Assembly: GCA_048884785.1 (NCBI GenBank)
Contig: JBHLQM010000011.1
Coordinates: forward strand, 1 to 30,372
Length of the DNA stretch: 30,372 nt
Direction: 5' to 3'
Origin: Candidatus Thorarchaeota archaeon
Lineage (GTDB): Archaea > Asgardarchaeota > Thorarchaeia > Thorarchaeales > Thorarchaeaceae
The position numbers and the translations under genes were made by a program. Below, piece by piece: positions 9,918 through 24,702 of the stretch. The notes below the pieces were generated by a model. The model saw only the letters and a program-made list of their open reading frames with translations, was not told where the DNA came from and searched no databases. Positions within the stretch are counted from its first letter, which is position 1, and every line of letters begins with the position of its first letter.

Positions 9918-11417
9918 CTACGGCACAAGTACTGCCGCTGCAGAATTTGCCAAGTCAAGAATTACTCCAGGATAAAGGAATAACACTATCATGCTGATCA
10001 CACAGATTAGTGCGGCAATCATCGGAATCCTTGGTAATGTTATTCTTTCTGTCGATGTAGACTCTGAGAAATACATCACTCTGAGCACTCGCAGGTAGTA
10101 ACCGAGTGAGAATACCACATTCAGGAATCCAATAAGACCCAGCCACCATAGACCGACTTCAGCTGTACTCATGAAGACCATGAATTTGGGAGTAAATCCA
10201 GCGGTTGGAGGGAACCCAGCAAGTGAGAGCATTAGGATACCCAACATAGCGGCGATGATAGGAGACCTCTGACTCAGACCGGATAATTCAGTATATGTGA
10301 TTCGCTTACCCAATGCTATAGACATGGCAAAGATAATGATGAATGCTCCTGCCTTCATTAAGGCATGAATAAATGCGAGGAAGAATGCGGACGATATACC
10401 ATAAGTTGTACTCACCGCAAAGCCAATGAAGACATACCCCATCATAGCAATGCTGCTAAAGGCCAACATTCTGAGAATATCCTTCTGAGCCAAAGCTAGG
10501 AAATTGCCAATTACCATCGTAAGAATAGAAACGACAATGATTAGTCCCAGCCATTCGAAGCGAGCTATGATGAATCCAACCATTAGAATTCGCACCAGCG
10601 CACTGATGCCAGTCTTCTTTGTGGCTCCAGCAAGGTATGCAGTAACACTTCCATCAGCAGTAGCATATGCATCAGGAACCCACATCCAGCCCGGAAATAT
10701 TCCAACCTTGAATCCAAAAGCAATTACAAACAATACCATTGCCAAAAGCAATGTGTATGCTTCTGTAGCAAGAGAAATGGGATCTGCCCAAACTTCTTCT
10801 ATACCTGATGCAACGGCTGAGAGTGCCGTCACACCGGTTATACCATAGACAAGTGCGATACCAAAAATCATGAACATGGTTGATATGAGACCCATGACAA
10901 AATACTTTGTTGCTCCATCAAGAGCTCCTCTATCAGGACTTAATGCAACCAAGATGTAGGTTGGCGTACTCATCAATTCCCAAGCCAAGAAAAGGGCCAC
11001 AAGATCAGTTGCCATTACAACCCACAAGGCTCCTGCAAACGAAATCATGAGCAGAAAATTGTAAGGTCCTTTATCCCCGCCATACTGGGTTGCGGATAGG
11101 AGAACCAAGAATGCAACCACTAATATCAAGTAAATGAAGAAGTCTGCGAATGCATCACGTATGAACAGTCCCCCAAACGAAGAACCATACAAATTGGGAT
11201 TGAGAATCATAACTTCGATGAAGGTGATTATTATCCCAATGATGCTAACTGGTAGTGGGTTGAATCGCATACCAACGACCAGTGCTATGATTGCAAACGC
11301 AATTAGTGTGAGAACTGGCAGCGACCCATACCAAGACTCGGGAAAGAGTAGCAAGAGGTCTCTCAAAGGAGTCATTAACGCCATAAATGCGTTGTATATT
11401 GCATCGAGCTGAAGCAC
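9918..11417 (-). CDS. nuoN: Complex I-like antiporter subunit N
   Basis: AWELMS, ATKYFVMG, GFKVGIFP..MWVPDAY, LRMLAFSSI, LSLAGFPPTAGFTPKF, YYLRV. GTG start overlaps the nuoM TAG. Confidence 0.9.
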   Translation of the reverse strand: MLQLDAIYNAFMALMTPLRDLLLLFPESWYGSLPVLTLIAFAIIALVVGMRFNPLPVSIIGIIITFIEVMILNPNLYGSSFGGLFIRDAFADFFIYLILVVAFLVLLSATQYGGDKGPYNFLLMISFAGALWVVMATDLVALFLAWELMSTPTYILVALSPDRGALDGATKYFVMGLISTMFMIFGIALVYGITGVTALSAVASGIEEVWADPISLATEAYTLLLAMVLFVIAFGFKVGIFPGWMWVPDAYATADGSVTAYLAGATKKTGISALVRILMVGFIIARFEWLGLIIVVSILTMVIGNFLALAQKDILRMLAFSSIAMMGYVFIGFAVSTTYGISSAFFLAFIHALMKAGAFIIIFAMSIALGKRITYTELSGLSQRSPIIAAMLGILMLSLAGFPPTAGFTPKFMVFMSTAEVGLWWLGLIGFLNVVFSLGYYLRVLRVMYFSESTSTERITLPRIPMIAALICVISMIVLFLYPGVILDLANSAAAVLVP

Positions 11418-12979
11418 TAGACCACACCTCCAATAATGAAAACAACAACTTTCATGACCAAATCCAAAATAAGGTCAGGCCAGATGCCTAGGAGTAGAAC
11501 TGGTATCATCATGAGGATTGGTGCGACTAGATCACTCCATGGTGCCTCTTGAACCTCTTTCTCAGGATCAGGGTCACTGAATACTATTCTGTTTAGAGTC
11601 CACAGCAAATAGCCAACTGTAAGGAATATTCCAAGCCCAATCAAACCCGTCCAGATATATCCCTCCACAGATACAGCACCGAATAATGTCAGTGCCTCTG
11701 CAATGAATCCGCTGAATCCAGGAAGTCCAAAGGCAGCGAGAGATGCAAGGATGAAGACTGCTGACATCTTTGGTGCCTTTGACATTAGCCCTTGTATCTG
11801 CGGAATCTCACGCGTGCCAGCAGCATATTTCAGCTGTCCGGCCATAAGGAACATCACAGATATGATGGTTCCATGGCTGAACATCATGAATATGGCACCA
11901 TTTAGTGCAAGACCAGCTGCAGCCTTAACAGCTGCACTCGTACTACCGATACCAACTGCACCAATGGCAACACCCAGCAGGACCCACGACATATGGTTGA
12001 TTGAAGTATATGCTACCATGCTCTTCATATCAGTCTGGGCCATCGCAGTGAAGGCCGCATAGACACATGTGAATACTGCTAATGCTGCGAAGGGGATTGC
12101 AAGTCGGACAAAACCATCAGGGACCATCCACAGACCTAATCTGATGAATGCATAGCCACCCATCTTCAGAAGTATTCCCGCCAAAATGACTGAACCAGGA
12201 GTTGGAGCTTTGACATGAGCCCACGGCAACCAATTGTGTAGTGGGAATACTGGTAGCTTTACACCAGCGCCCATAAAGACTGCGAGAGCGAAACCAATCT
12301 GAACATCAACAGGGAGTCCCATTGCTCTGAGTTCAACCATATTGAAAGTTGGAGTCGGAGCAAGGAAGAATAGAACAAAGAACGAGATTGCCATGACGGC
12401 GGAACCTAGATGCGTGTAGATGACAAACTTCATTGCTGCATGCTCACAGCCCTGCTCCCCATACCTTCCGACGATGAAGAACATCGGGATGAGTACAAGT
12501 TCCCAGAATACAAAGAATCCGAATAGGTCAATTGACATGAAGACTCCCAGAAGGCCTGTCTGCATAAACAGGAACAGAGAGTAATACATGCTTTGGGCTT
12601 TCTTGATATGATTGGAGCTTATCGCTGCTATGAAGACAACTAGATTGGATAGAACAATCATCACTACAGAGAGACCATCAATTCCTACAAGGAGCTGAAG
12701 AACCGGTGAATCAGCTGCAGTACCAAGCACTGCGATAATGAAACTCCATCCATATGTTCCACCAGTTGGATCAGTTAGTTGATAATTGGGATCAATCGCC
12801 CCTGCAAGCAATAGTGATAGGACTAGCTCAATGAATCCTATAACCAATGTCAGCCAGCGGGCTCCTCTCCCTCCGGCGACAAGAGCAAGAAATGCTCCAA
12901 TGACTGGAAGTAGAAGCATGAATGGCAGGATTCCAAAGGGAATCATCGAGATAAGGGATTGAGCAAATTCAAGCTGCAT
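11417..12979 (-). CDS. nuoM: Complex I-like antiporter subunit M
   Basis: GIDGLS, FWELVLIPMF, VKLPVFPLHNWLPWAHVKAPTPGSVILAGILLKMGGY, GLPGFSGFIAE. Confidence 0.92.
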   Translation of the reverse strand: MQLEFAQSLISMIPFGILPFMLLLPVIGAFLALVAGGRGARWLTLVIGFIELVLSLLLAGAIDPNYQLTDPTGGTYGWSFIIAVLGTAADSPVLQLLVGIDGLSVVMIVLSNLVVFIAAISSNHIKKAQSMYYSLFLFMQTGLLGVFMSIDLFGFFVFWELVLIPMFFIVGRYGEQGCEHAAMKFVIYTHLGSAVMAISFFVLFFLAPTPTFNMVELRAMGLPVDVQIGFALAVFMGAGVKLPVFPLHNWLPWAHVKAPTPGSVILAGILLKMGGYAFIRLGLWMVPDGFVRLAIPFAALAVFTCVYAAFTAMAQTDMKSMVAYTSINHMSWVLLGVAIGAVGIGSTSAAVKAAAGLALNGAIFMMFSHGTIISVMFLMAGQLKYAAGTREIPQIQGLMSKAPKMSAVFILASLAAFGLPGFSGFIAEALTLFGAVSVEGYIWTGLIGLGIFLTVGYLLWTLNRIVFSDPDPEKEVQEAPWSDLVAPILMMIPVLLLGIWPDLILDLVMKVVVFIIGGVV

Positions 12980-12980
12980 C

Positions 12981-15332
12981 TTAGATTACCCCCATAGTGA
13001 TGAGAATGACAAGAATCATAATTCCGAATCCAAACATAATCACAGAAACATAGTCATTCACACGGCCTGTTTGCATTGCCTGTCCGCTCTCAGATGCACC
13101 AACACTACGTGTTGATACTCCCTCTGCGAAGCCATCTACCACATTGTCATCAAACCAACGGATTCTCCTGGAGAGTTCTTTGGCAGTATCTGCAGACTTG
13201 AAATCTATTCCATCAATGATATTGTTGTCAACTCTGACACGATACCACTCTGCAAACTTTAGGAACTTGTTCAGTACCCAATAGTAGAACTCATTGATGT
13301 ACCAGCGATGCTTAAGGAAGTTGTAGATTCTCCTCTTGAAGCCACTTTCAGGAATGATTGCATTTGGCTTGTCCCCACGCTTGATGTAGATGAGATAGCC
13401 TGGAATTCCACCAACTGCAAGTGCGAGCAGTGTAATAGTGAAGGGTACAATTCCCAGCTCACTGAATTTGACTGCAATCATCTCAGTGAGGATTTCAGTC
13501 CATGTGTGCTCTGAACCAATGGCAAGCATCTCCACATAGGGGAATACTAGAAACGCAATCAGTGTGAATGCTGCCAGAAGGTATAGAGGAATCATCATGG
13601 CAGGACCAGGATCATGCGGGTCACTGTGGTGTTCTTCTGAAGTGCGCTCTTCGTGGTGCTCGTCAGAGTCCACAAGATGATTATCCACGGTAGTGTCATG
13701 TTCTTCATGATGTCCAGAATCATGACTATCATGATTACCGTGACCGGCCTTGCCGGGGCCGTAGAAGGTTAATCCCATTAATCTAAAGCTGTAGAATATT
13801 GTGCATGCGGCTGCAATTATAGCAAACAAAAATACAAGCCAGCCAACAGACGCTATTAGAATTCCACCATGAGATACTATCTCTCCCTCGACAATCATCA
13901 ACTCATATGCATACTCGATGATTGAGTCTTTTGACCAGAAGCCTGAGAACGGAGGAATTCCGGCTAGAGCCAAGACACCAATCCACATCACTATGAAGGT
14001 CTTTCGCATGTGTTTCCTGAGGCCACCCATCTTTGAGATATACTTCGTATGAACTGCATGAATTACTCCTCCTGAGGCAAGGAATAGTAGTGCCTTGAAT
14101 GCACCATGGGATATCACATGCAGCACACTTGCAAGATAGGCGGATTCATACGCAATATGAGTGGTTAATCCAAGGTCGTGAGCATAAAGACCGTAGAATG
14201 CGAGGAGTCCAGCGGCCCCCAGTCCAAGCATCATGTAGCCGAGCTGGCTGAGTGTCGAAAACGCCAGTATTTGTTTGAGCTCGTTTGAGGTTATACCCAT
14301 TGTTGCTGTCATGAGGGCGGTGACCGCACCTATGACCGCAACAACAATGAAGAAGAATGTAATAGCGTCAGCACCTGAAACCTGTAACAAGTTGAACGCG
14401 TGTTCCCCACCATTGTGATCTCCAGCAGCCGCTGCCTGCGCATCAACCATTGTGAGCAGGAATCGTGCTGTGATGTAGATGCCAGCCTTTACCATAGTAG
14501 CTGCGTGAATTAGTGCGGAAACTGAGGTCGGGCCTGCCATTGCCTCTGGCAGCCACACCTGTAGCGGTGCCTGTCCAGATTTACCAATGGCACCCATGAA
14601 GATCAGAAGGAATGTTGGAATCAGCATTCCAAGTCCAGCCATGGTAGTCCACCACTGCTGGTAGTTCTCTGCCATAAGGCTGAAGGAGAATGTGCCAGTG
14701 AAGGCAAATAATAGAAGGATACCTCCAAGCATGAAAGCATCGCCAATTCGTGTGACTATGAATGCCTTAGTTCCACAATGAGAGTTGTATTGACCTTCGG
14801 TCGTGAATTGAAGTAGAGGATTCTCGTATTCAACCTCGCCAGGTGCAGTCTCAGGTGGATTCCGCTTGTCGTTCCAGAAGCCAATAAGACCGTAGGAGCA
14901 GAAGCCCATAATCTCCCAGCCAATGAACGCAATCAGCAAGTTGTTGCTTAGGACCAGTGTAAGCATTCCACCACCGAAGGCCAGCATCAGGAAGAAGAAC
15001 CTGTCGCGGTCGCCCTCATGTGCCATATACTCTGTGCTGTACACGTAGATTAAGAAACACAACGTGCTTGCGAGTACAGCCATGATAACTGAGAGTGGGT
15101 CAAGGAGGACCTCGAAGCTAATACCCAGGTAGTCAATCCATACCCACGAAGTCGTACCAACTGGATTATCCACTTCCAGAAGAAGGGACCAACAAAGAAC
15201 CATTGCGATACCCATCATGATTGCAGGAGTCCAGTCTCGGAGTTTCTCACTGAACCTACCAACAATAGGCACTAGCAGAGCTCCAGCCAATGGGATTACA
15301 AGGATTAGGTAGTAGGGTAGTCCGAACAGCAT
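12981..15332 (-). CDS. nuoL: Complex I-like antiporter subunit L, long form (783 aa) with His-rich loop and extended lateral helix
   Basis: GWEIMGFCSYGLIGFW, KAFIVTRIGD, GKSGQAPLQVWLPEAMAGPTSVSALIHAATMV, HGAFKALLFL, GFWSKD, QTGRVNDY. Confidence 0.93.
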   Translation of the reverse strand: MLFGLPYYLILVIPLAGALLVPIVGRFSEKLRDWTPAIMMGIAMVLCWSLLLEVDNPVGTTSWVWIDYLGISFEVLLDPLSVIMAVLASTLCFLIYVYSTEYMAHEGDRDRFFFLMLAFGGGMLTLVLSNNLLIAFIGWEIMGFCSYGLIGFWNDKRNPPETAPGEVEYENPLLQFTTEGQYNSHCGTKAFIVTRIGDAFMLGGILLLFAFTGTFSFSLMAENYQQWWTTMAGLGMLIPTFLLIFMGAIGKSGQAPLQVWLPEAMAGPTSVSALIHAATMVKAGIYITARFLLTMVDAQAAAAGDHNGGEHAFNLLQVSGADAITFFFIVVAVIGAVTALMTATMGITSNELKQILAFSTLSQLGYMMLGLGAAGLLAFYGLYAHDLGLTTHIAYESAYLASVLHVISHGAFKALLFLASGGVIHAVHTKYISKMGGLRKHMRKTFIVMWIGVLALAGIPPFSGFWSKDSIIEYAYELMIVEGEIVSHGGILIASVGWLVFLFAIIAAACTIFYSFRLMGLTFYGPGKAGHGNHDSHDSGHHEEHDTTVDNHLVDSDEHHEERTSEEHHSDPHDPGPAMMIPLYLLAAFTLIAFLVFPYVEMLAIGSEHTWTEILTEMIAVKFSELGIVPFTITLLALAVGGIPGYLIYIKRGDKPNAIIPESGFKRRIYNFLKHRWYINEFYYWVLNKFLKFAEWYRVRVDNNIIDGIDFKSADTAKELSRRIRWFDDNVVDGFAEGVSTRSVGASESGQAMQTGRVNDYVSVIMFGFGIMILVILITMGVI

Positions 15333-15343
15333 TTTTGATCACC

Positions 15344-16891
15344 TCATGGAATGGGAATCAGATCTTTGAAGGGAATCAAGTTCGGTATTGCGTCCACTGC
15401 GGGCACTATGATATCAAGCGCTATTCCTGGGAATATTCCAAAGAACACGATGAGGAACCCGAGAATTATCATTGGGATTGTCATTGATCTCGGCCCTTCT
15501 GTCACTCCATCGAGTTCTTGGGGATGTGGTCCTAGAAACACTTTCCAGAAGAAGCGCAGCATATATCCTGCACTCATTATGGTGCTGGATACTGCAAGTA
15601 CAGAAAGTATCAGGAAGTTCATGAACACGGTTTCTGAACCTGGAGGCGCAGCTGCATGGAATCCACCAAGGAACATCATCCACTCGCTCGCAAACCCAGA
15701 AAGCGGGGGGCTACCAGCAATGCTCATCATACCTATCGCTGCCATGAAGGCAGTAATGGGCATCTTGTTTGAGAGACCACCAAGCTCGTCAATATTCCGT
15801 ATATGTGTCTGATGCATAACCGTCCCGGCAGTCATGAACAACAGACCTTTGGAGAATGCATGATTGATAAGATGGAAGAGACCACCTGATACGCCATAAA
15901 CAGTGAAGACTCCTAGGGCAAACAGGACATAGCCCATCTGAGACACAGACGAGTATGCTAAGAGACGTTTGATATCTTTCTGAACAAGTGCCATGAAACC
16001 TCCATAAAACATGGTTATGACACCAATGGTTGCAATCCAGAAAGATAGGCTGGCTGCTGCAGGTCCAAGTGTGATTGTCCCAAACCGGACAAGTGCATAC
16101 GCTCCGGTTTCAATCATTGCACCTGATAGCAGAACTGAGATGGGGGTTGGAGCTTCAGCATGAACTGGAGGAAGCCACCAATGAATCGGGAATACTGCCA
16201 TCTTGACCAGAAATCCTGCGGCAAGAAGAATGAAGATTAACTTCAGAAGATCAGTGGCACCAACATATGTTGACAAGAGAAGCTGTATTGTAGCAAGGTC
16301 AAATGTGCTTGCCCCGCTCAGGAAGTAGAGAAGTCCGAAGCCTATCAGAATACAGACTGCTCCGCTCTGAGTATATAGCCAGAATTTCAAAGCAGTGCGC
16401 TTTCGTGATTCAGGCAGTCCCCAAAGTAGGATGAGGAAATACGAAGGCACAAGCATGAGTTCCCAGGCGATGAAGAACTCAATCATATTTGTGGCCAATG
16501 TGACCCATTGCATACCCATTAGAAAGAACAGTTGATTCGCAAAGAAGGCAGGTTTACTGTGTTCGTGTGAGGTGTAGCCAACTGCGTAGACAACAGAGAG
16601 AAAGCCAAGCACGACAACTGCAAATGTGATCGGAAATGCAATGCCATCAAGATATAACCCGAATGCGCCAAGTAGAGAAGACCAAGTCATTCCTTCATAC
16701 GCTGGTCCACCCTCAACCATAATTCGGAAGAAGGGTGGAATCATTAGGATTACTGAAACACCTGAAAAGGCAACAGCAATCTTTCCAGCACGGTCTCCAA
16801 TTCTATTTTTGAACAGGTAAATTAGAAGGCCACCAACGAAGAGGACAATAAGTGAGAGGGCCATAAATGGCGGTTCGAATGTTGCCTGCAT
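15344..16891 (-). CDS. nuoM: Second NuoM/MrpD-like antiporter subunit (extra 'M2')
   Basis: AWELMLVPSYFLI, VKMAVFPIHWWLPPVHAEAPTPISVLLSG, DIKRLLAYSSVSQMGY, GFASEW (TM12 Glu as in NuoM). No lateral helix. Confidence 0.85.
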   Translation of the reverse strand: MQATFEPPFMALSLIVLFVGGLLIYLFKNRIGDRAGKIAVAFSGVSVILMIPPFFRIMVEGGPAYEGMTWSSLLGAFGLYLDGIAFPITFAVVVLGFLSVVYAVGYTSHEHSKPAFFANQLFFLMGMQWVTLATNMIEFFIAWELMLVPSYFLILLWGLPESRKRTALKFWLYTQSGAVCILIGFGLLYFLSGASTFDLATIQLLLSTYVGATDLLKLIFILLAAGFLVKMAVFPIHWWLPPVHAEAPTPISVLLSGAMIETGAYALVRFGTITLGPAAASLSFWIATIGVITMFYGGFMALVQKDIKRLLAYSSVSQMGYVLFALGVFTVYGVSGGLFHLINHAFSKGLLFMTAGTVMHQTHIRNIDELGGLSNKMPITAFMAAIGMMSIAGSPPLSGFASEWMMFLGGFHAAAPPGSETVFMNFLILSVLAVSSTIMSAGYMLRFFWKVFLGPHPQELDGVTEGPRSMTIPMIILGFLIVFFGIFPGIALDIIVPAVDAIPNLIPFKDLIPIP

Positions 16892-17323
16892 TTACCTGAA
16901 CCTCCTTCCTCGCCATTCCAATGGCTCTCTGTCCAGGTTCTCAATCTTATCAGGACCAAATAGCAGATCTTCGCGCTCTCCTTCAGAGAGGTCAACAATA
17001 GGAGTGTGGAATAGAGCATCGAACCTGCAGGCATCAACGCAGAGTCCGCAGAAGATACAGCGTGTATAATCGAAATACAATGCTGCGTCTTTCTCGTACA
17101 TCTTATCCTCCTTATCAATTCGAATTGCCACAACTGGGCATGCACGGACGCACTGAGCGCACGCAGTGCAGGCATGACGCACATGTATGTGTCTTCCGCG
17201 AGTTCTCTCAGGATAGTATCTATCCTCAAATGGAAAGAGATTCGTGACAGGTCGCTTGAAGATCTGTCTAAAGACATGTCTAAGTACCTTGAAGATATCG
17301 CCTAGATTTCCAAAGAATCCCAT
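16892..17323 (-). CDS. nuoI: Complex I subunit I, 2x[4Fe-4S]
   Basis: PVT..P.E....ERTRGRH, CTACAQCVRACP, CIFCGLCVDACR. Confidence 0.92.
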   Translation of the reverse strand: MGFFGNLGDIFKVLRHVFRQIFKRPVTNLFPFEDRYYPERTRGRHIHVRHACTACAQCVRACPVVAIRIDKEDKMYEKDAALYFDYTRCIFCGLCVDACRFDALFHTPIVDLSEGEREDLLFGPDKIENLDREPLEWRGRRFR

Positions 17324-17327
17324 CTCA

Positions 17328-18452
17328 TTAACCTCCTATAACAAAGCCTGCTAATCCTGGCACGTAGACTATTGCAAACATAGCCAGAAGGACATTCAAC
17401 ATTGATAATGGAAGGAGATACTTCCAACAGAAGTATACAATCTGATCTTGCCTGAGCCTGTGGAATGATGAACTTACAAACACAAACAAGAATAGAACAA
17501 TCAGGAACTTGATGAGGAAATTGACAACACCGGGCAAAAATGGAATTCCATTGAATCCGCCCAAGAAGAATGTGACAATAAGAGCTGAGTAAAGCATCTG
17601 CTCCGCAAACTCAGCGAAATATGTCAAAGTGAAATAGATACCGGAAAATTCTGTTCTCCACCCAAAGATGATCTCTGAGTCAGCAACCGGTGCATCAAAT
17701 GGAAATGTGCCAACAGATGCAATTGCTGCAGCAAGGAATGTTACGCAGTTGATTGGAAGCAGAACGATATACCAAATTGCACTCTGGGCTTGTGTAATAG
17801 CCATTACACTCAATGATCCAGCCAGCATTGCAGGTCCAACTGAAGAGATAATCATGGGAATCTCAGCGGCGAACTGATTGTTGGCTGCTCTGAAGCCTCC
17901 GATGAGAGAATACTTCGAACCGCTAATCCAACCCGAAAGCAGAGCAATCACAGGGACCGCAGTAAGAAACGCGAAAATCAATACAAGACTCACAGAGAGA
18001 TCAGCAATGACCCACGTTGTATCCCAGGGAATAAATGCAAAGGGTAACAATACAATTACCAGCAATAGCGATGGCAAAAACCTGTACATCCATCGGCTTG
18101 CGTTTCGAGGGATAATTGTTTCCTTCGCCACTAGTTTGATTGCGTCAGCGAAGAGCTGCAAACCACCATACTTGCCCAAATGGAATGGACCGCGTCGCAT
18201 CTGAATACGGCCCCATAACTTTCTTGTCGCCCACACAAAGAAGATGAGCGTCATAACAATGAATATGAGACCTGGGAAGAGCACTGTCTTAAATAGAAAC
18301 CAGAAGTTTTGAACTACAAGAAGCCAAATGAAATCAACGACACTTTCTATCCAGAGTACCACCTGATGAAGGAAGTTCCAAATTATTGCAATTATGTTCC
18401 ATATCCACTGAGGAATTCCTGCAAGCCATTCAAAGAAATCAAACTGCAACAT
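17328..18452 (-). CDS. nuoH: Complex I subunit H, with Trp-rich N-terminal extension
   Basis: RKLWGRIQMRRGP, GLQLFADAIKLVAKE, SKYSLIGGFRA, PFDAPVADSEI..G..TEFSG, RLRQDQ. Start reassigned to ATG 18452 (GGAGGTGG upstream; avoids the overlap with nuoD). Confidence 0.92.
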   Translation of the reverse strand: MLQFDFFEWLAGIPQWIWNIIAIIWNFLHQVVLWIESVVDFIWLLVVQNFWFLFKTVLFPGLIFIVMTLIFFVWATRKLWGRIQMRRGPFHLGKYGGLQLFADAIKLVAKETIIPRNASRWMYRFLPSLLLVIVLLPFAFIPWDTTWVIADLSVSLVLIFAFLTAVPVIALLSGWISGSKYSLIGGFRAANNQFAAEIPMIISSVGPAMLAGSLSVMAITQAQSAIWYIVLLPINCVTFLAAAIASVGTFPFDAPVADSEIIFGWRTEFSGIYFTLTYFAEFAEQMLYSALIVTFFLGGFNGIPFLPGVVNFLIKFLIVLFLFVFVSSSFHRLRQDQIVYFCWKYLLPLSMLNVLLAMFAIVYVPGLAGFVIGG

Positions 18453-18466
18453 TATTCCACCTCCCA

Positions 18467-19603
18467 TCATCGATCCCACCATCCCACGTATGGATCTAGA
18501 CTGCCAAATATTGCAATGAAATCTGCAAACCTTGATCCGGGAGTCAAATACTTGAGTGCCTGATAGGAATTCAGGCAAGATCCGCGTATCTTTGCACGGT
18601 AGGGTGTTTGTGCCTTGTCCTCTGTTTTCAGCCAGAGTCCAAGTACACCTCGTGTACCTTCTACACGTCCATAGGCCTCACCGGCTGGAAGTCGGTTCGC
18701 TTTAGCGCGAGCCTTTGGATCTGCAATCTCTCCTTCGGGGACCTGGGGGAGTAGCTGTCGTATAATATTGATTGATGTTCGGACTTCCTTGAACCTTTGA
18801 ACCATTCTGTCATATGCGTCACTCTCCCCGGGATGATTGGGATTCTCAGTGATCGGAACCTCCCAATCAACCAGGTCGTATGCAAGATTGGGGTCTGGCA
18901 TATCTTTCCTGAGATCCATTGGTAATCCACATGCCTTGACATTGGGTCCTGATAGACCCCATTTGAGAGCCTGCTTGGCGGAATACTGTCCGATACCTTC
19001 AGTTCTCCTTCTGAAGAGAGGACTACCCATTAGCATATCCTCAAACTTTGACATGTTTGCCTCCATATGAGCAATCGCCTTTTCCAGGGTTTGCACTGAT
19101 TTCTCAGTAAAATCATACTTCACGCCACCAGGAGTATTGTATGATACTGTATGTCTGGAACCAGTAAGCTCCTCAAATGCATTCAAGAAGAATTCACGGT
19201 CAATCCATGGCCAGATGAGCATGGCAAAGAAACCCAGCTCTGCTGAGAACTGCCCCCACCAGAATTGAATTGAGTGGATCCTACTTGCTTCCATCATTAT
19301 TGTACGCATGACTTTCGCTCTATCAGGAACCTCTAATTCCGCAATCTGCTCTACCGCAGAGATATAGGGATATTCAGAGAGAAACGCTTCAAGCATGCAT
19401 AATCTCTCCATGACCAATGAACCTTGTCTGAAATTGCGAAATTCAAGAACCTTCTCTGCGGATCTATGAAAGTACCCAGCATGCGGATCACATTCAACAA
19501 TGAAGTCACCGACAACTTTCAGTTTTGCAGCCCATCCATGAGCTGACACATGCTGAGGTCCAAACCAAACATCAACTGATTCATCAACAATATCCGGACT
19601 CAT
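18467..19603 (-). CDS. nuoD: Complex I subunit D-like large subunit, no [NiFe] ligands
   Basis: FGPQHVSAHG, GYFHRSAEK, EASRIHS, DAYDR, VEGTRG.LG, PYRAKIRG, GSLDPYVGWWDR. Lacks both CxxC motifs of hydrogenase large subunits. Confidence 0.9.
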   Translation of the reverse strand: MSPDIVDESVDVWFGPQHVSAHGWAAKLKVVGDFIVECDPHAGYFHRSAEKVLEFRNFRQGSLVMERLCMLEAFLSEYPYISAVEQIAELEVPDRAKVMRTIMMEASRIHSIQFWWGQFSAELGFFAMLIWPWIDREFFLNAFEELTGSRHTVSYNTPGGVKYDFTEKSVQTLEKAIAHMEANMSKFEDMLMGSPLFRRRTEGIGQYSAKQALKWGLSGPNVKACGLPMDLRKDMPDPNLAYDLVDWEVPITENPNHPGESDAYDRMVQRFKEVRTSINIIRQLLPQVPEGEIADPKARAKANRLPAGEAYGRVEGTRGVLGLWLKTEDKAQTPYRAKIRGSCLNSYQALKYLTPGSRFADFIAIFGSLDPYVGWWDR

Positions 19604-20127
19604 TCGCTGGCACCTCCTCTCTCTGGGCGTGGTTTTGGAGTCGCCAGACCAGATTCGTCAACCCGACTTCTGTCGATTACAAAGCTCTTTCGAAGTGGGT
19701 ATTGTCCCTCAAGCTCATCTGGAAGAAGCAAGAGCCTTAGGTCAGGATGGCCCTGAAAATGAATACCGTACATTTCGTGCGTTTCTCGTTCATGCCATTC
19801 AAATGCAGGGAAGATGTCAGATGTTGTATCTATTGATGGCTCAGGACCTGAGAGTTCAACGCGGATTTGACAAATGAAATTGTTCAGGTGCGAATAGAGA
19901 ATGTAAATCACCTGATACTTGTCCTCTCCAAGGTCAACTCCAAAAACACACTCTGGGAATATCATCTGAACGGATTCATCAAAGAGGGCAATGAGATCTC
20001 TAATCTGTTCTTTCCTGGGAGAGAATTCCGCACGGTTTTCGTTAATCATGTTAATTGTAATGTCGGGAAAGCGAGCTTGTACTGTTCTCACAAGAGCTGA
20101 GAGAGAGATCAAATCGATAGCATCCAT
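19600..20127 (-). CDS. nuoC: Complex I subunit C
   Basis: FPAFEWHERETHEMYGIHFQGHPDLRLLLLP..YPLRK. Start reassigned to ATG 20127 directly after the nuoK stop (AGGAG upstream). Confidence 0.92.
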   Translation of the reverse strand: MDAIDLISLSALVRTVQARFPDITINMINENRAEFSPRKEQIRDLIALFDESVQMIFPECVFGVDLGEDKYQVIYILYSHLNNFICQIRVELSGPEPSIDTTSDIFPAFEWHERETHEMYGIHFQGHPDLRLLLLPDELEGQYPLRKSFVIDRSRVDESGLATPKPRPERGGASE

Positions 20128-20128
20128 T

Positions 20129-20440
20129 TTACACAGACTCCTCCTTAATTGGACGGCCAAGATCGACCGTTCCATACCTTCGATTATACATCAACATCAG
20201 AACAAGTGCAAGTGCCGTGTGAGCAGCGGCTACTGATATAACAAGAATAATGAGACCCTGAGGTGTGAATGAAAAAACACCTCCGTAAACAGCAAAAGCG
20301 ACCAGTGCCAGATTGACGCCATTACCCATTATTTCAGCACCAATAAGGATTCTAATTAGATTCCGTTTCACGATCATTCCGTAGGCTCCCAGACCCACCA
20401 ACATGAACGCAACAACGAGATACCAACTGAGAGGAACCAT
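20129..20440 (-). CDS. nuoK: Complex I subunit K
   Basis: GAYGMIVKRNLIRILIGAEIMGNGVNL, three TM helices. Confidence 0.9.
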   Translation of the reverse strand: MVPLSWYLVVAFMLVGLGAYGMIVKRNLIRILIGAEIMGNGVNLALVAFAVYGGVFSFTPQGLIILVISVAAAHTALALVLMLMYNRRYGTVDLGRPIKEESV

Positions 20441-21078
20441 TACTCTTCAGCCTCCTCAGTTTCACTGGATATCTCATCAGCCTCAACTTCAGGCTGAGGT
20501 TCAGCTTCTATACCGAACTCTCCGGTAATGCCAACCAATGCTTCAGCCTTGTCCATCTTCATCATAGCGATGGCACCTACTAGTGTAGTAAGAATAAGCA
20601 AAGCTACAATTTGAACATAGATTCCATGATCACTCCATAGCCATTCGGCTAGCCCTTGAAGGCTTTGTGAAAGCTCCGGTACTCCCTCTACAATATATTC
20701 GGGCCAGGGGAAGGCCAGTGCAAGCCCGGCTGAAATTGCCATAACCACAGCTGCAATTAATCTACCAACTTGACGAGCTCGCGCAGATTCAAACACCTCC
20801 AATGACCTGTCTTGCGCTCTTGGGAGCAGGAGAACACCGAAGATTATCAAGGCGCTAATGCCTCCCGTGTAAACAGCTATCTGCATACCGGCAATGAAAG
20901 GTGCATCAAGCAATAGAAAGAAGCCAGCAACAAAACTAGCCATAAATCCGAAGAAGAATACAGCATAGACAATATCCTTGTGTTCAAGGGCAAGATATGC
21001 AAGGATGAGCACAACACCTGCAATAAGTAGGAATTCAACCTGCTCAAATAATTCCAGTACGGGTTCTATCTCCTGCAT
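20440..21078 (-). CDS. nuoK-adjacent nuoJ: Complex I subunit J
   Basis: LDAPFIAGMQIAVYTGGISALIIF, five TM helices, acidic tail. Start reassigned to ATG 21078 (GAGG upstream, 16 nt after the nuoA stop). Confidence 0.88.
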   Translation of the reverse strand: MQEIEPVLELFEQVEFLLIAGVVLILAYLALEHKDIVYAVFFFGFMASFVAGFFLLLDAPFIAGMQIAVYTGGISALIIFGVLLLPRAQDRSLEVFESARARQVGRLIAAVVMAISAGLALAFPWPEYIVEGVPELSQSLQGLAEWLWSDHGIYVQIVALLILTTLVGAIAMMKMDKAEALVGITGEFGIEAEPQPEVEADEISSETEEAEE

Positions 21079-21094
21079 CTTAGTAACCTCTATT

Positions 21095-21523
21095 CTAATG
21101 ATGGATCTCTTTTCTAGCTGCTTTCGCTTGGAGATACGCCTCCACTGTTTCCTTTCCATCTAGGGATGCTTGGGGCAAACGTTTCATGACAAACGAGATC
21201 CCGCCCATGATGACAAGCACAAAGAGAAGTGTCTGCCACAGAATGAGAGCCTCCAATCTCAATGTTGATGCAGATAGTAACCAGAGAAAAGCACCCATTA
21301 CATCAACAACGACAAAGAGAATTGTATACACAATGTAGTTGTACGGATAGGATATCCTTGCCGGACCAATGGGCTCTTCACCACATTCGTAGGTAGATGT
21401 CTTCTCCGAATTCTGAAGGACGTGGGGGCGCAAGACCCACGACGCAAGGAGCATCACAACTACCAGAACCATAGCAAGTAATGCCCAAACCAAAACGGGT
21501 ACGAAATCTACGAATAATCTCAT
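21095..21523 (-). CDS. nuoA: Complex I subunit A
   Basis: EKTSTYECGEEPIG, YTILFVVVDV, three TM helices. Confidence 0.92.
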   Translation of the reverse strand: MRLFVDFVPVLVWALLAMVLVVVMLLASWVLRPHVLQNSEKTSTYECGEEPIGPARISYPYNYIVYTILFVVVDVMGAFLWLLSASTLRLEALILWQTLLFVLVIMGGISFVMKRLPQASLDGKETVEAYLQAKAARKEIHH

Positions 21524-22219: not shown

Positions 22220-22765
22220 TCAATCGGTAGTCTCAGAAGAGGCTGCCGATGATTCCTTAGTTTCTGAGGCCTGTTCTTCAGTTGCCTTTTCTGCAGGAGA
22301 TTCGCTCTCTGGTTTGGTAGTTTCGTCTTCAGGTACTTCCAAAGGAGGACCATACTTCAATTTTGAAACATCCATTATCCCAGGGGTCATTGCCTCTTCA
22401 GTATACTCCTTTGAACGAATCATGGCAAATCCTCCAGCTACAAGAATAACAGAGCCAATTGACCAGCTCGAGAGAAATGCTGTGTCACTGAGAGGCGAGG
22501 AGTTAATCACGAAATACAGCATGTAAAACATTGAGAAGACAGCGGCAATCGCAAGCATGGTAAGTTTTGACCTACCTCGTTCCACAGCAAAATACCTGTA
22601 GAAAAATGGGAGGGACAGAATAGGCCAAATCATCAACCAGAAAGACTGATCCCAGGTTGTCAAAGCTTGCAGCAATTGGTATAGGAAGCTGAAGTAATAT
22701 GCGCTGAGGAGGAGGATGCCCAACCAGACAAGACAATATGGTTCACTATCTTCCCGCAGCTTCAT
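22220..22765 (-). CDS. Membrane protein (about 4 TM) with acidic low-complexity tail, translationally coupled to the FAD-NuoB fusion
   Basis: ATGA overlap at 22762-22765; hydrophobic helices followed by an E/S/T-rich tail. Confidence 0.75.
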   Translation of the reverse strand: MKLREDSEPYCLVWLGILLLSAYYFSFLYQLLQALTTWDQSFWLMIWPILSLPFFYRYFAVERGRSKLTMLAIAAVFSMFYMLYFVINSSPLSDTAFLSSWSIGSVILVAGGFAMIRSKEYTEEAMTPGIMDVSKLKYGPPLEVPEDETTKPESESPAEKATEEQASETKESSAASSETTD

Positions 22766-24702
22766 TGGATCATCCCCATCGCATCTTGATTCTCATATTT
22801 CCTCTGCCAATGAGTTGTTCCGGCACGAATCTTGTTCTGAAGAATTAGATGTGCTCTTACAAAGTCAGCTGGCTTTGGCGGACACCCTGGCAAGTAGACG
22901 TCTACAGGGACAACCTTCTCAGGCGGTGTCATTAGAGAGTAGCCATCCCAGAACAAACCACCACTTGCAGCGCACTGTCCAAATGAGATGACATACTTGG
23001 GCTCTGGCATCTGCTCGTAGATCCGTCGCAATCTTGGTGCCATCTTCTTGGTGAGGGACCCGGATATCCAGAGAACATCAGCCTGACGAGGACCAAAGAG
23101 AGGTAGCATTCCAAACCGTTCAATATCCCATCGTGATGCCACAGCGGCCGCACCATCAGCCATGCAGCAACCTAAACCATACTGAACAGGCCATGGACTG
23201 TGAGCCCGTCCCCAGCGAAGCATCCATTTGAGTGGAGGCAGATTTTGCAGCCACTTCAGCAGTATTGGAGCTATCCGGCCAAAACCGTTCCTAAAGAGGT
23301 CGTAGAATATCCACATGAAGTATTTACCAAACTTGAGAATCATGGGCAGCCAGAATGCAAAGATCTTGCCGGGATTGGATATCTCATTCTTGTCATACTT
23401 GAGTTTGGCACCACGAATCTTTGCGAGCCGTCGTTTGCCAAAGTACGTAGGTGCGTAATTTGCAAACCAAATCCCTGTGCTGTGTGGGTGGCCACCATGA
23501 CGCTGAGCAATCTTGAATATAACGAAGCTCTGTGACCAAGAGAGCATGAAGAAGTGACGGCGTTCGTCCTCCAAGAAGTAGCCCATCATGGTCACTCCTG
23601 TCTTTGATGTTACATAGCCATCTATCCCTGCTTCAGCAGAAGCTTGCTCAAACTGGAAATCATCCAAAATGGCTTCAAGGGTCTCAAGAGGTGCAAAGGC
23701 CTGCCCAACAACAAGAGTCGGTCCTGCCTTCTTTACTCGCATTGGATAGAACCTGTCATGCCACTCATGTGCAGCAATATGCTCGTCGTAGAGCTGCCCC
23801 TTGTATTCCTCTGTGACACGTCGTACTACATCAAAACCTTCCTCAATCTCTTCCTCAGTTCCCTCATATGCCACAAGTACTGTCCCATGATGGACAGGGA
23901 ATGGAAAGGGCTCTTCTGGATTCCAGATCTTCTTCTTGAGGTCAGTGTATTTACTCTCTTCAAACTTAATCGTGAATGGAAGTGGACCATCATGCATCAT
24001 CTTTTCCATTGCCATTACCATGAGATAATTCTCAGGAAAACTTGCGACAATAGGTTTGATTGGCATTAGAGGTTTTATCTTCAATTTGATCTTTGTAATG
24101 ATTCCAAGAATACCTTCAGTATCACAGAAGAGGTCAGTATCGGTACTCTTGACCAGCTTCCCTGTTGGAAGGACAACTTCAAACTCTAGCACATTCTTGT
24201 TAATATTCCCATATTTCAGGGATCCAATTCCATCGCCACCCTGAGCTACCCATCCTCCAACAGTTGCTGCCAATCCAGATGATGGATAGCAGCGCAAGTC
24301 CATCCCGTTTCTATTCAATTCATGCTGCAGATTCGACCAGGAGATTCCAGGTTCCACCAGAACAAAATGATTCTCCTTATCTATCTCAAGAATCCTATTC
24401 ATTGGCCGAATATCAACGATGATTCCTCCCTTGCGAGGAATCGCACCTCCGTAACCCGAAGTTCCTGCGCCACGAGGAACAAGAGGAATCTTTTCTTCAT
24501 TAGCGAACTTGTAGAGGGCAACAATTTCCTCTGGGGTATGTGGTTGAACTAGCGCATCCGGCTTGTTGTTCATCAACCATCCTACTTGCTTAGGAAGTGC
24601 ACCTACGTCTGTGGATAAGATGAGCCGCTCATGCTTCTCAGTGATGAGTCGGTCGCCAAAGATTTCAGACAGCTTCTCGATCTGCTTTTTCTTTAGTCCC
24701 AT
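22762..24702 (-). CDS. nuoB: Fusion: FAD-binding oxidoreductase (GlcD/D-lactate dehydrogenase/VAO-PCMH fold, aa 1-~448) plus complex I subunit B (aa ~490-646)
   Basis: N-part: PDALVQP, PLVPRGAGTSGYGG, VLVEPG, ATVGGWVAQGGDG..SLKYG, TEGILGIITK, NPGKIF. C-part: WGRAHSPWPVQYGLGCC, PRQADVL, MAPRLRRIYEQMPEPKYVISFGQCAASGG, VPVDVYLPGCPP. Single uninterrupted frame. Confidence 0.93.
   Translation of the reverse strand: MGLKKKQIEKLSEIFGDRLITEKHERLILSTDVGALPKQVGWLMNNKPDALVQPHTPEEIVALYKFANEEKIPLVPRGAGTSGYGGAIPRKGGIIVDIRPMNRILEIDKENHFVLVEPGISWSNLQHELNRNGMDLRCYPSSGLAATVGGWVAQGGDGIGSLKYGNINKNVLEFEVVLPTGKLVKSTDTDLFCDTEGILGIITKIKLKIKPLMPIKPIVASFPENYLMVMAMEKMMHDGPLPFTIKFEESKYTDLKKKIWNPEEPFPFPVHHGTVLVAYEGTEEEIEEGFDVVRRVTEEYKGQLYDEHIAAHEWHDRFYPMRVKKAGPTLVVGQAFAPLETLEAILDDFQFEQASAEAGIDGYVTSKTGVTMMGYFLEDERRHFFMLSWSQSFVIFKIAQRHGGHPHSTGIWFANYAPTYFGKRRLAKIRGAKLKYDKNEISNPGKIFAFWLPMILKFGKYFMWIFYDLFRNGFGRIAPILLKWLQNLPPLKWMLRWGRAHSPWPVQYGLGCCMADGAAAVASRWDIERFGMLPLFGPRQADVLWISGSLTKKMAPRLRRIYEQMPEPKYVISFGQCAASGGLFWDGYSLMTPPEKVVPVDVYLPGCPPKPADFVRAHLILQNKIRAGTTHWQRKYENQDAMGMIQ

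Follow-up and report, generated by a model that had tools for sequence, protein, structure and literature searches.

What can a NuoD subunit pass its electrons to when it has neither the nickel-iron (NiFe) site of its hydrogenase relatives nor the tyrosine of the canonical quinone site? The question is raised by a NuoD-like gene on the minus strand of a 30,372-nucleotide stretch of DNA from Candidatus Thorarchaeota (contig JBHLQM010000011.1, positions 1 to 30,372), referred to here as the window. The gene starts with ATG, encodes 378 residues and contains no internal stops, and a plus-strand reading of the same interval was rejected because of its many stops. Its pocket is a real, conserved and undescribed variant of the NuoD pocket. 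Our preferred reading, to which we assign a probability of about 0.5, is that the quinone pocket has been remodelled, with Tyr372 in place of the canonical Tyr87 (Thermus numbering), and serves a menaquinone-like acceptor; judging from the sequence, the NuoD of Thorarchaeota (hereafter Thor) probably reduces a vitamin K-like quinone in an unusual way.

Since no closer relatives of eukaryotes than the Asgard archaea are known, the energy metabolism of this group matters for models of eukaryote origin. In article text, the Nuo-like complexes of Heimdallarchaeia are treated as active hydrogenases (10.1101/2024.07.04.601786, section 7, on active NiFe forms), and Asgard Nuo-like complexes are otherwise treated as generic complex I lacking NuoEFG (PMC9723677). 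The Thor clade is a third kind: not a hydrogenase, it has full complex I architecture, and its pocket departs from the Tyr87 rule. No description of the site turned up in the article text searched on thorarchaeotal and Asgard NuoD; relevant material may be contained in Fig. 3 and Table 1 of PMC4758237, in Table S9 of PMC9723677 and in the hydrogenase tables of 10.1101/2024.07.04.601786.

We mapped the residues of the pocket by HMMER alignments to Thermus Nqo4 (2fug_4) and to MbsL of the Pyrococcus furiosus membrane-bound sulfane reductase, MBS (6u8y_L), and compared NuoD with PDB sequences using phmmer. Fifty-four distinct chains were matched, the top one being MbsL 6u8y_L (6.5e-58, 33% identity over a single full-length stretch), followed among others by NdhH (8.1e-55), Thermus Nqo4 (2.4e-54), MbhL (4.2e-39) and HycE (9.7e-35). 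Pfam assigns the protein to Complex1_49kDa, with a weak additional match to NiFeSe_Hases. On Nqo4, His18 and His22 are equivalent to H34 and H38, Arg67 to R84, Cys69 to D86, Met70 to Y87, Glu72 to H89, Gln118 to T135, Glu122 to D139, Leu129 and Ile130 to F146 and F147, Arg318 to R350, Asp370 to D401, Tyr372 to V403 and Trp375 to D406. The text of Degli Esposti 2015 (PMC4758237) lists S36, H38, D86, Y87, T135, D139, F146, F147, R350 and D401 as residues of the quinone chamber (Q-chamber) and equates Thermus positions 86 and 403 with the NiFe ligands Cys1 and Cys3. Five of these ten Q-chamber residues are kept, namely S20, H22, R318, D370 and, by a conservative Asp-to-Glu change, E122. The mapping therefore shows a site that retains the His-acid pair together with the Arg, the Asp and Cys1, has lost Tyr87 and has a Tyr at Cys3: Tyr372 lies two residues past the Q-chamber Asp (the D401 equivalent), exactly at the NiFe Cys3 position and next to Cys69 at the Cys1 position. 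In NiFe sites, Cys1 and Cys3 are terminal nickel ligands; in Yarrowia the Cys3 position would be V460, a residue not mentioned in the papers searched.

A first-pass annotation of the window had pointed out both His residues of GPQHVSAHG, a counterpart of DRLDY with Cys69 and no Tyr, and a C-terminal DPYVGWWDR where a NuoD or hydrogenase motif would be expected. All three are present as described: the His residues align to Thermus H34 and H38, ERLCMLE has Met70 at the Y87 position, and DPYVGWWDR is followed by the stop codon. Motif comparison also bears out the suggestion that the site is neither a NiFe site nor a canonical D-Y quinone site, and the site is strongly constrained. The NiFe ligand motifs RxCGxC and DPCxxC are absent, with one of the four cysteines present (Cys69; the others are Glu, Tyr and Trp), and the NiFe site is lost in this NuoD. 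The loss of NiFe cysteines that marks canonical NuoD is not complete here, Cys69 being retained at Cys1.

Conservation was read from one MAFFT alignment of 270 sequences, with positions 18, 22, 69, 70, 72, 372 and 375 taken as a signature. In the homologue search, 61 clusters have 70-88% identity, the next sequences (P0063-66) stand at 48-49% and the remainder do not exceed 39%; the named orthologues are mostly Thorarchaeota, with a few Prometh-, Hermod-, Sif- or Lokiarchaeota. Among the 59 orthologue clusters with a residue at each of these positions, 56 read H-H-C-M-E-Y-W, the exceptions being C-L-E-Y-W (two) and ..Y-L (one); four further orthologues are truncated. The full signature occurs in none of the 207 non-orthologous sequences of the alignment, and a Gly at position 70 always goes with C-G-C-C-C, save in one truncated row. 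Across the 59 orthologues, H18, H22, C69, E72, E122, R318, D370, Y372 and W376 are invariant, as are 163 of the 378 positions if at most one exception is allowed. Position 70 is Met or Leu in every one of them, never the Tyr of the canonical site, and His18 and His22 are both present throughout, one row having a VAAHG loop. When an orthologue is counted at 70% identity or more, or as a fragment of such a sequence, 54 of the 76 genomes of the window's own family have one, and none was seen in other families (301 genomes of the phylum). This is the only PF00346 gene in the window's genome. A look for RNA evidence yielded none among 20 listed runs.

The sequences at 48-49% identity form a sister clade from a metagenome-assembled genome (MAG) labelled Heimdallarchaeota (G025), with the signature H-H-S-M-E-Y-E. 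M70, E72, E122, D370 and Y372 are thus common to the Thor and sister clades, whereas Cys69 and Trp375 are Thor-specific, the sister having Ser69 and Glu375. E122 is invariant in both clades; the equivalent residue is Asp in 91% of 137 canonical rows. The cysteines of the window's NuoD are four in all, Cys38, Cys69, Cys225 and Cys343 (19490-19492, 19397-19399, 18929-18931 and 18575-18577, minus strand); all are invariant (58-59 of 59) among Thor orthologues, and their sister-clade counterparts are L/V, S, A and S.

The AlphaFold2 (AF2) model of NuoD obtained from a 106-sequence alignment has a mean predicted local distance difference test (pLDDT) score of 95.4 and a predicted template modelling (pTM) score of 0.94; a single-sequence model (pLDDT 34.5) was set aside. 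Aligned with VIA-align, the model matches Paracoccus denitrificans NuoD (8qby) with Z 49.0 and a root-mean-square deviation of 2.0 Å over 368 residues, other Z values being 45.1 (MbsL), 44.1 (HycE) and 41.2 (MbhL), and TMq against complex I 49-kDa chains is 0.89-0.93. Compared with NuoD/Nqo4/NDUFS2 of complex I (2fug/4hea, 8qby), the fold and the Complex1_49kDa domain are the same, H38, D139 (as Glu), R350 and D401 are kept, and the partners are alike (NuoA/H/J/K/L/M/N and a tandem-Cys NuoB). Unlike complex I, the Thor protein has Met for Tyr87, Cys for Asp86, Q/L/I for T135/F146/F147, Tyr at 403 and Trp at 406, and its complex lacks NuoEFG, has NuoB fused to a flavoprotein and includes an extra antiporter-like subunit.

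The partner subunits were identified in the same operon (Table 1), which on the minus strand runs FAD_binding_4/FAD-oxidase_C::NuoB, a small membrane open reading frame (ORF), NuoA, J, K, C, D, H, I, M-like, L, M, N. The subunits present are A, B, C, D, H, I, J, K, L, M, N and a second M, without NuoEFG; an FpoF-type subunit is also absent from the operon, one FrhB/FpoF-family gene being located on another contig (C32). The NuoB domain matches NdhK (5.6e-43, 150 bits) and Nqo6 (2.2e-42) in the PDB, then MbsJ (1.1e-30, 110 bits) and MbhJ (5e-27), and it has four Cys ligands including the tandem pair of the N2-type motif, not the three of the MBS proximal cluster. Given this motif, the pocket of NuoD would receive its electrons from NuoB. 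NuoH matches E. coli NuoH (7.8e-50, 174 bits) far ahead of MbhM (1.6e-12) and MbsM (3.8e-12, 50 bits); it is of complex I type, NuoA, J and K are present, and an Mrp-type arm with an MbsM anchor was not seen. The matches of NuoB and NuoH thus make the partners complex I-type, while NuoD itself is equidistant between NuoD and MbsL. On sequence grounds, this NuoD is predicted to belong to a complex I-like pump of Thor-type Asgard archaea that has no NuoEFG. The longest ORF of NuoH overlaps NuoD by 112 bases, and its real start is therefore probably an ATG near 18470-18482.

Table 1. Location in the window of the NuoD-like gene, its pocket motifs and the genes of its predicted partner subunits.
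Feature	Position	Strand	Basis
NuoD-like gene, pocket-forming subunit of a complex I-like enzyme	18467..19603	-	Pfam Complex1_49kDa 2e-63; AF2; structural matches
GPQHVSAHG, residues 15-23, beta1-beta2 loop; His18/His22 = Thermus H34/H38	19535..19561	-	alignment
ERLCMLE, residues 66-72; Cys69 = NiFe Cys1 (Thermus D86), Met70 = Tyr87 position, Glu72 = NiFe Cys2	19388..19408	-	alignment
Glu122 = Thermus D139, partner of H38	19238..19240	-	alignment
DPYVGWWDR, residues 370-378; Asp370 = D401, Tyr372 = NiFe Cys3, Trp375 = NiFe Cys4	18470..18496 (with stop 18467-18496)	-	alignment
FAD_binding_4/FAD-oxidase_C fused to NuoB domain	22762..24702	-	GLGCCMAD tandem Cys and two later Cys
NuoA, NuoJ, NuoK	20129..21523	-	Pfam
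NuoC, 4-base overlap with NuoD start	19600..20175	-	ORF list, Pfam
NuoH (longest ORF), membrane side of pocket	17328..18578	-	Pfam, PDB matches
NuoI (2x[4Fe-4S]), likely ferredoxin entry point	16892..17323	-	Pfam
Four antiporter-like subunits (M-like, L, M, N)	9918..16891	-	ORFs, domain search

In the remodelled quinone pocket, electrons would pass from reduced ferredoxin through NuoI and NuoB to a menaquinone-like headgroup lying between His22 and Tyr372, with Tyr372 acting as hydrogen-bond and proton donor, the role that Tyr87 has elsewhere. Since the sister clade has Ser and Glu at these places, Cys69 and Trp375/376 may be Thor-specific linings of the pocket and not catalytic. Ferredoxin is probably the donor through NuoI, as was proposed for related Asgard Nuo complexes by Sun et al. 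2021 (PMC9723677), whose text gives a route from ferredoxin via Nuo to menaquinone for Sif- and Jordarchaeia. The first-pass annotation had considered that a Tyr elsewhere, for instance that of DPY, might compensate for the missing one. This is half true: the DPY tyrosine is conserved and falls at Thermus position 403, not at the canonical Tyr87 position, a location obtained from the alignment. If Tyr372 does the work of Tyr87, the clade offers a natural experiment on the minimal needs of a quinone site, and Thor archaea, which are pictured as fermenters, would run a quinone-linked, ion-pumping, respiration-like step. If it does not, a widespread pump of sediment archaea has an acceptor yet to be named.

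The fusion of NuoB to a flavoprotein suggests another fate for the electrons, namely that they leave an N2-type cluster for the fused FAD domain and a CCG/Fe-S partner, with the NuoD cavity only coupling conformation. The window contains, besides the FAD_binding_4-NuoB fusion, an HdrD/GlcF-like CCG protein on the plus strand, and two FAD_binding_4 genes and another CCG gene follow just downstream. The arrangement resembles the ferredoxin:heterodisulfide scheme postulated for an Fpo-like complex with HdrD in Methanomassiliicoccales (Lang et al., as relayed in the text of PMC4758237), and according to the same text the NuoD homologue of Ca. Methanoplasma also keeps H38 and D139, together with the tandem Cys of NuoB. 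A quinol oxidiser was not found in the genomes searched, there is no Tyr87, and five of the ten Q-chamber residues differ from the canonical set, all of which would suit a bypassed cavity. The sister clade, however, argues against it. Its NuoB is unfused, a 189-aa ORF with the tandem Cys and 66% identity to the Thor NuoB domain (on a 3.9-kb contig, L013:1955-2416), and no FAD-NuoB gene was found beside the operon of the sister MAG, which is syntenic with that of the window (J-K-C-D-H-I-M2-L-M-N, L003:8525-19500). The same M70/E72/Y372 site thus occurs with an unfused NuoB, and the design of the pocket is therefore independent of the fusion. An idle cavity also fails to explain the invariance of the pocket residues or the synteny with a MenA-like gene described below. 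We consider this exit unlikely, and the earlier proposal that bypass by the FAD/CCG modules accounts for the loss of the Tyr is disfavoured. The sister clade with Ser69, Glu375 and unfused NuoB is described here for the first time; its MAG carries a second, lone NuoD paralogue (L004:9998-11101), a few kb from an IS110-type transposase.

Sulfur reduction is said to have been proposed for Thor archaea by Seitz et al. in 2016, and Cys69 could be taken to reduce polysulfide or an organic (hetero)disulfide in the manner of MBS. MbsL is the best PDB match of NuoD by sequence, and the trees described below place the clade among Mbx-like two-Cys families. The MBS pattern that the first-pass annotation had given, C-x-x-E with a second, C-terminal Cys, is confirmed by C85, E88 and C385 of MbsL: R-L-C69-M-L-E72 aligns opposite R-I-C85-V-P-E88, and because the alignment stops at MbsL residue 384 with seven residues left on either side, Y372 corresponds to MbsL 385. 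Both proteins accordingly have Cys at NiFe Cys1, Glu at Cys2 and a residue other than Tyr at the Tyr87 position. The Cys pair (Cys1 and Cys3) named in the text of the MBS paper as C85 and C385 (PMC7684303) is nevertheless reduced to one here, with Tyr372 in place of Cys385, and the sister clade has Ser69. Moreover, the C85A/C385A variant of MbsL keeps wild-type activity, so that both cysteines are dispensable; catalysis in MBS, which lacks equivalents of H38 and Y87, is assigned to the proximal cluster with three Cys ligands in a shortened MbsJ loop (text of PMC7684303). In the Thor complex, by contrast, NuoB has four ligands in the tandem-Cys arrangement, H38 is kept as His22, and the membrane arm is of complex I type (NuoH/A/J/K), not Mrp-type. 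A sulfur or disulfide acceptor, which the first-pass annotation had entertained, is therefore disfavoured, and we regard it as highly improbable.

Two other archaeal lineages help to place the remodelled quinone pocket. Methanosarcina FpoD (P0126, named by NCBI/UniRef) shares with the Thor protein an archaeal, NuoEFG-less complex of 11-subunit type and a retained Cys1, whereas in FpoD Tyr87 and Cys3 are present and H38 and D139 absent, the reverse of what is seen here on all four counts (text of PMC4758237). The Thor NuoD scores 253.5 against the FpoD model NF040602 (cut-off 600) and reads C-M...Y where P0126 reads C-Y...C; the Mbx/Mbs-like representatives read C-V/F-x-D/E...C. There is a parallel in motif with the NuoD of the TACK type (Sulfolobaceae, Korarchaeum, Thermofilum, Bathyarchaeia), which also lacks Tyr87 and has a conserved C-terminal Tyr. 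In the TACK type this Tyr is shifted forward by one residue, to 371, the beta1-beta2 loop has one residue fewer, Cys1 is absent and the acid at D139 is replaced (I/L/M), the identity to Thor NuoD being about 35%. Among 119 relatives of the TACK-type sequence P0141 (P0352-P0470), every C-terminal pattern listed has the Tyr, mostly as SLDYFPPEADR. The text of PMC4758237 describes Sulfolobus NuoD as lacking H38, Y87 and D139 and treats the function of its site as unsettled. The parallel, a C-terminal Tyr without Tyr87, is reported here for the first time. In 70 non-hydrogenase rows, a C-terminal Tyr (371/372) was seen in 13 of the 30 without Tyr70 and in none of the 40 with it. One could speculate that archaea have built the proton-donating Tyr of the quinone pocket on the C-terminal strand (Tyr372 in Thor and Heimdall-labelled sequences, Tyr371 in TACK), quinone reactivity arising at least twice from Cys-retaining, hydrogenase-derived ancestors, and that in Thor the adjacent, invariant Cys69 and Tyr372, at the two former terminal nickel ligands, could form a redox-active or cross-linked pair; we hold this to be a doubtful proposition.

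The genes around the operon are consistent with a quinone. Just past the window, on the same contig, is a UbiA-family gene that is best matched by MenA models (TIGR00751, 105 bits against a cut-off of 102); beside it are a polyprenyl synthase and a geranylgeranyl-reductase-family (GGR) gene, all three 12-20 kb from NuoD, and the genome also encodes a full-length UbiE-like methyltransferase. Of 86 genomes of the family, 65 have a MenA-like gene, and by hand collation it lies on one contig with this NuoD, 6-34 kb away, in 28 genomes from 11 genera. Several smaller observations concern this block. PPOX- and LLM-class genes resembling F420-dependent enzymes occur near it, including flavin- or F420-like PNPOx/PPOX-class genes at 30506-31811 of the Thor contig (L005:207-1512); the sister MAG has a PNPOx/PPOX-class gene (L003:7160-7684) about 0.2 kb from nuoA. 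Two more FAD_binding_4/FAD-oxidase_C genes and a second 2x[4Fe-4S]+CCG gene (contig 34124-39051, L005:3825-8752) form a block next to the polyprenyl synthase and the MenA-like gene. A single in-frame TGA interrupts the latter in three related genomes (G301:C64:12482-13531, G224:C405:2139-2864 and G155:C5:84009-84581), and in G155 NuoD and the MenA-like gene are each broken into two adjacent pieces.

A number of observations weigh against a remodelled quinone pocket. In the window's genome, which is 91% complete, MqnA was not found, all matches to the MenB model are below cut-off (148 against 343 bits), and neither cytochrome bd nor NrfD nor a NarI/HdrE-type cytochrome b was found; COX1 was not found in nine genomes. 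From these negatives it follows that no ring pathway or quinol oxidiser was identified. The MenA-like gene is also present in genera g12, g14 and g4, which have true NiFe hydrogenases and not this NuoD. The protein falls below all NCBIfam cut-offs for NuoD/FpoD (NF004739, 321 against 360; TIGR01962, 270 against 459; NF008974, 279 against 522), and the five substitutions at D86, Y87, T135, F146 and F147 (to C, M, Q, L and I) amount to half of the listed Q-chamber positions. In NuoH, the N-terminal ERK/R motif has Thr where a conserved Glu is expected. The mutual exclusion of Tyr70 and the C-terminal Tyr amounts to three events, for which an independent-pairs test has no power (p = 1), and the placement of Tyr372 relative to the pocket, His22 and N2 is predicted from the alignment.

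The missing ring-forming menaquinone pathway could also point to a different hydrophobic carrier, either similar to phenazine or a lipid-soluble Asgard compound as yet undescribed, bound in a pocket made of Met70, Trp375, Trp376, Leu129 and Ile130. Compared with the canonical site, these residues give a more aromatic and more hydrophobic lining, and Fpo is described in the text of PMC4758237 as using methanophenazine with a different residue set. Against this, the adjacent prenyltransferase is best matched by MenA models, and W375 is not shared by the sister clade; we think such a carrier quite unlikely.

The hydrogenases of the same family of genomes read RICGICS...DPCxSCTDR. An association of the MenA-like gene with this NuoD exclusively was considered and rejected, as g12, g14 and g4 have the MenA-like gene and hydrogenases only. 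A canonical NuoD in g12 and g14, suspected from Pfam coverage, was rejected likewise: the genes in question are NiFe hydrogenases. In Thor-family genera that do not have this NuoD, true large subunits of group 4 NiFe hydrogenases are encoded instead (L006-L010; G131, G143, G027, G046, G075); G075 has both the NuoD type and the NiFe hydrogenase. These hydrogenase-only Thor genera are a new observation.

For phylogeny reconstruction we used FastTree on 155 of the 270 aligned sequences, leaving out rows with fewer than 330 aligned residues, rows with gaps at motif positions and all but seven Thor rows, and a quick tree under the posterior mean site frequency (PMSF) model on 80 of those 155, chosen by clade. 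In both trees the Thor and sister sequences group together with full support, their common stem being long (0.62-0.66), and are placed outside canonical NuoD in the Cys-retaining, Mbx-like/hydrogenase half, with backbone supports of only 84-94. In an approximately unbiased (AU) test, grouping the clade with 39 canonical rows costs 4.9 log-likelihood units and is not rejected (p-AU = 0.42), a result on the placement of the Thor and sister clade that is new here. The first-pass annotation had supposed an evolutionary intermediate. The trees agree with this in placing the clade with the Cys-retaining half, yet the grouping with canonical NuoD stands unrejected, and at p = 0.42 we therefore make no claim about an intermediate.

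One further sequence, P0178 (C-M-Y-E...D-I-Y-P-G; loci L016-L038 and L065 for it and its relatives), was considered as a third C-M-x-E...Y lineage and rejected after 23 of its relatives had been checked: 15 are two-Cys Mbx-like sequences (53-59% identity), three are Mbs/Mbx-like and five are canonical D-Y. Since its relatives are mostly of the two-Cys kind, P0178 is a lone variant and looks like an isolated Cys3-to-Tyr change. At the three loci inspected, its two-Cys relatives (SDRVCVLEALN...SLNICPADMDR) belong to small operons that include a single antiporter-like gene.

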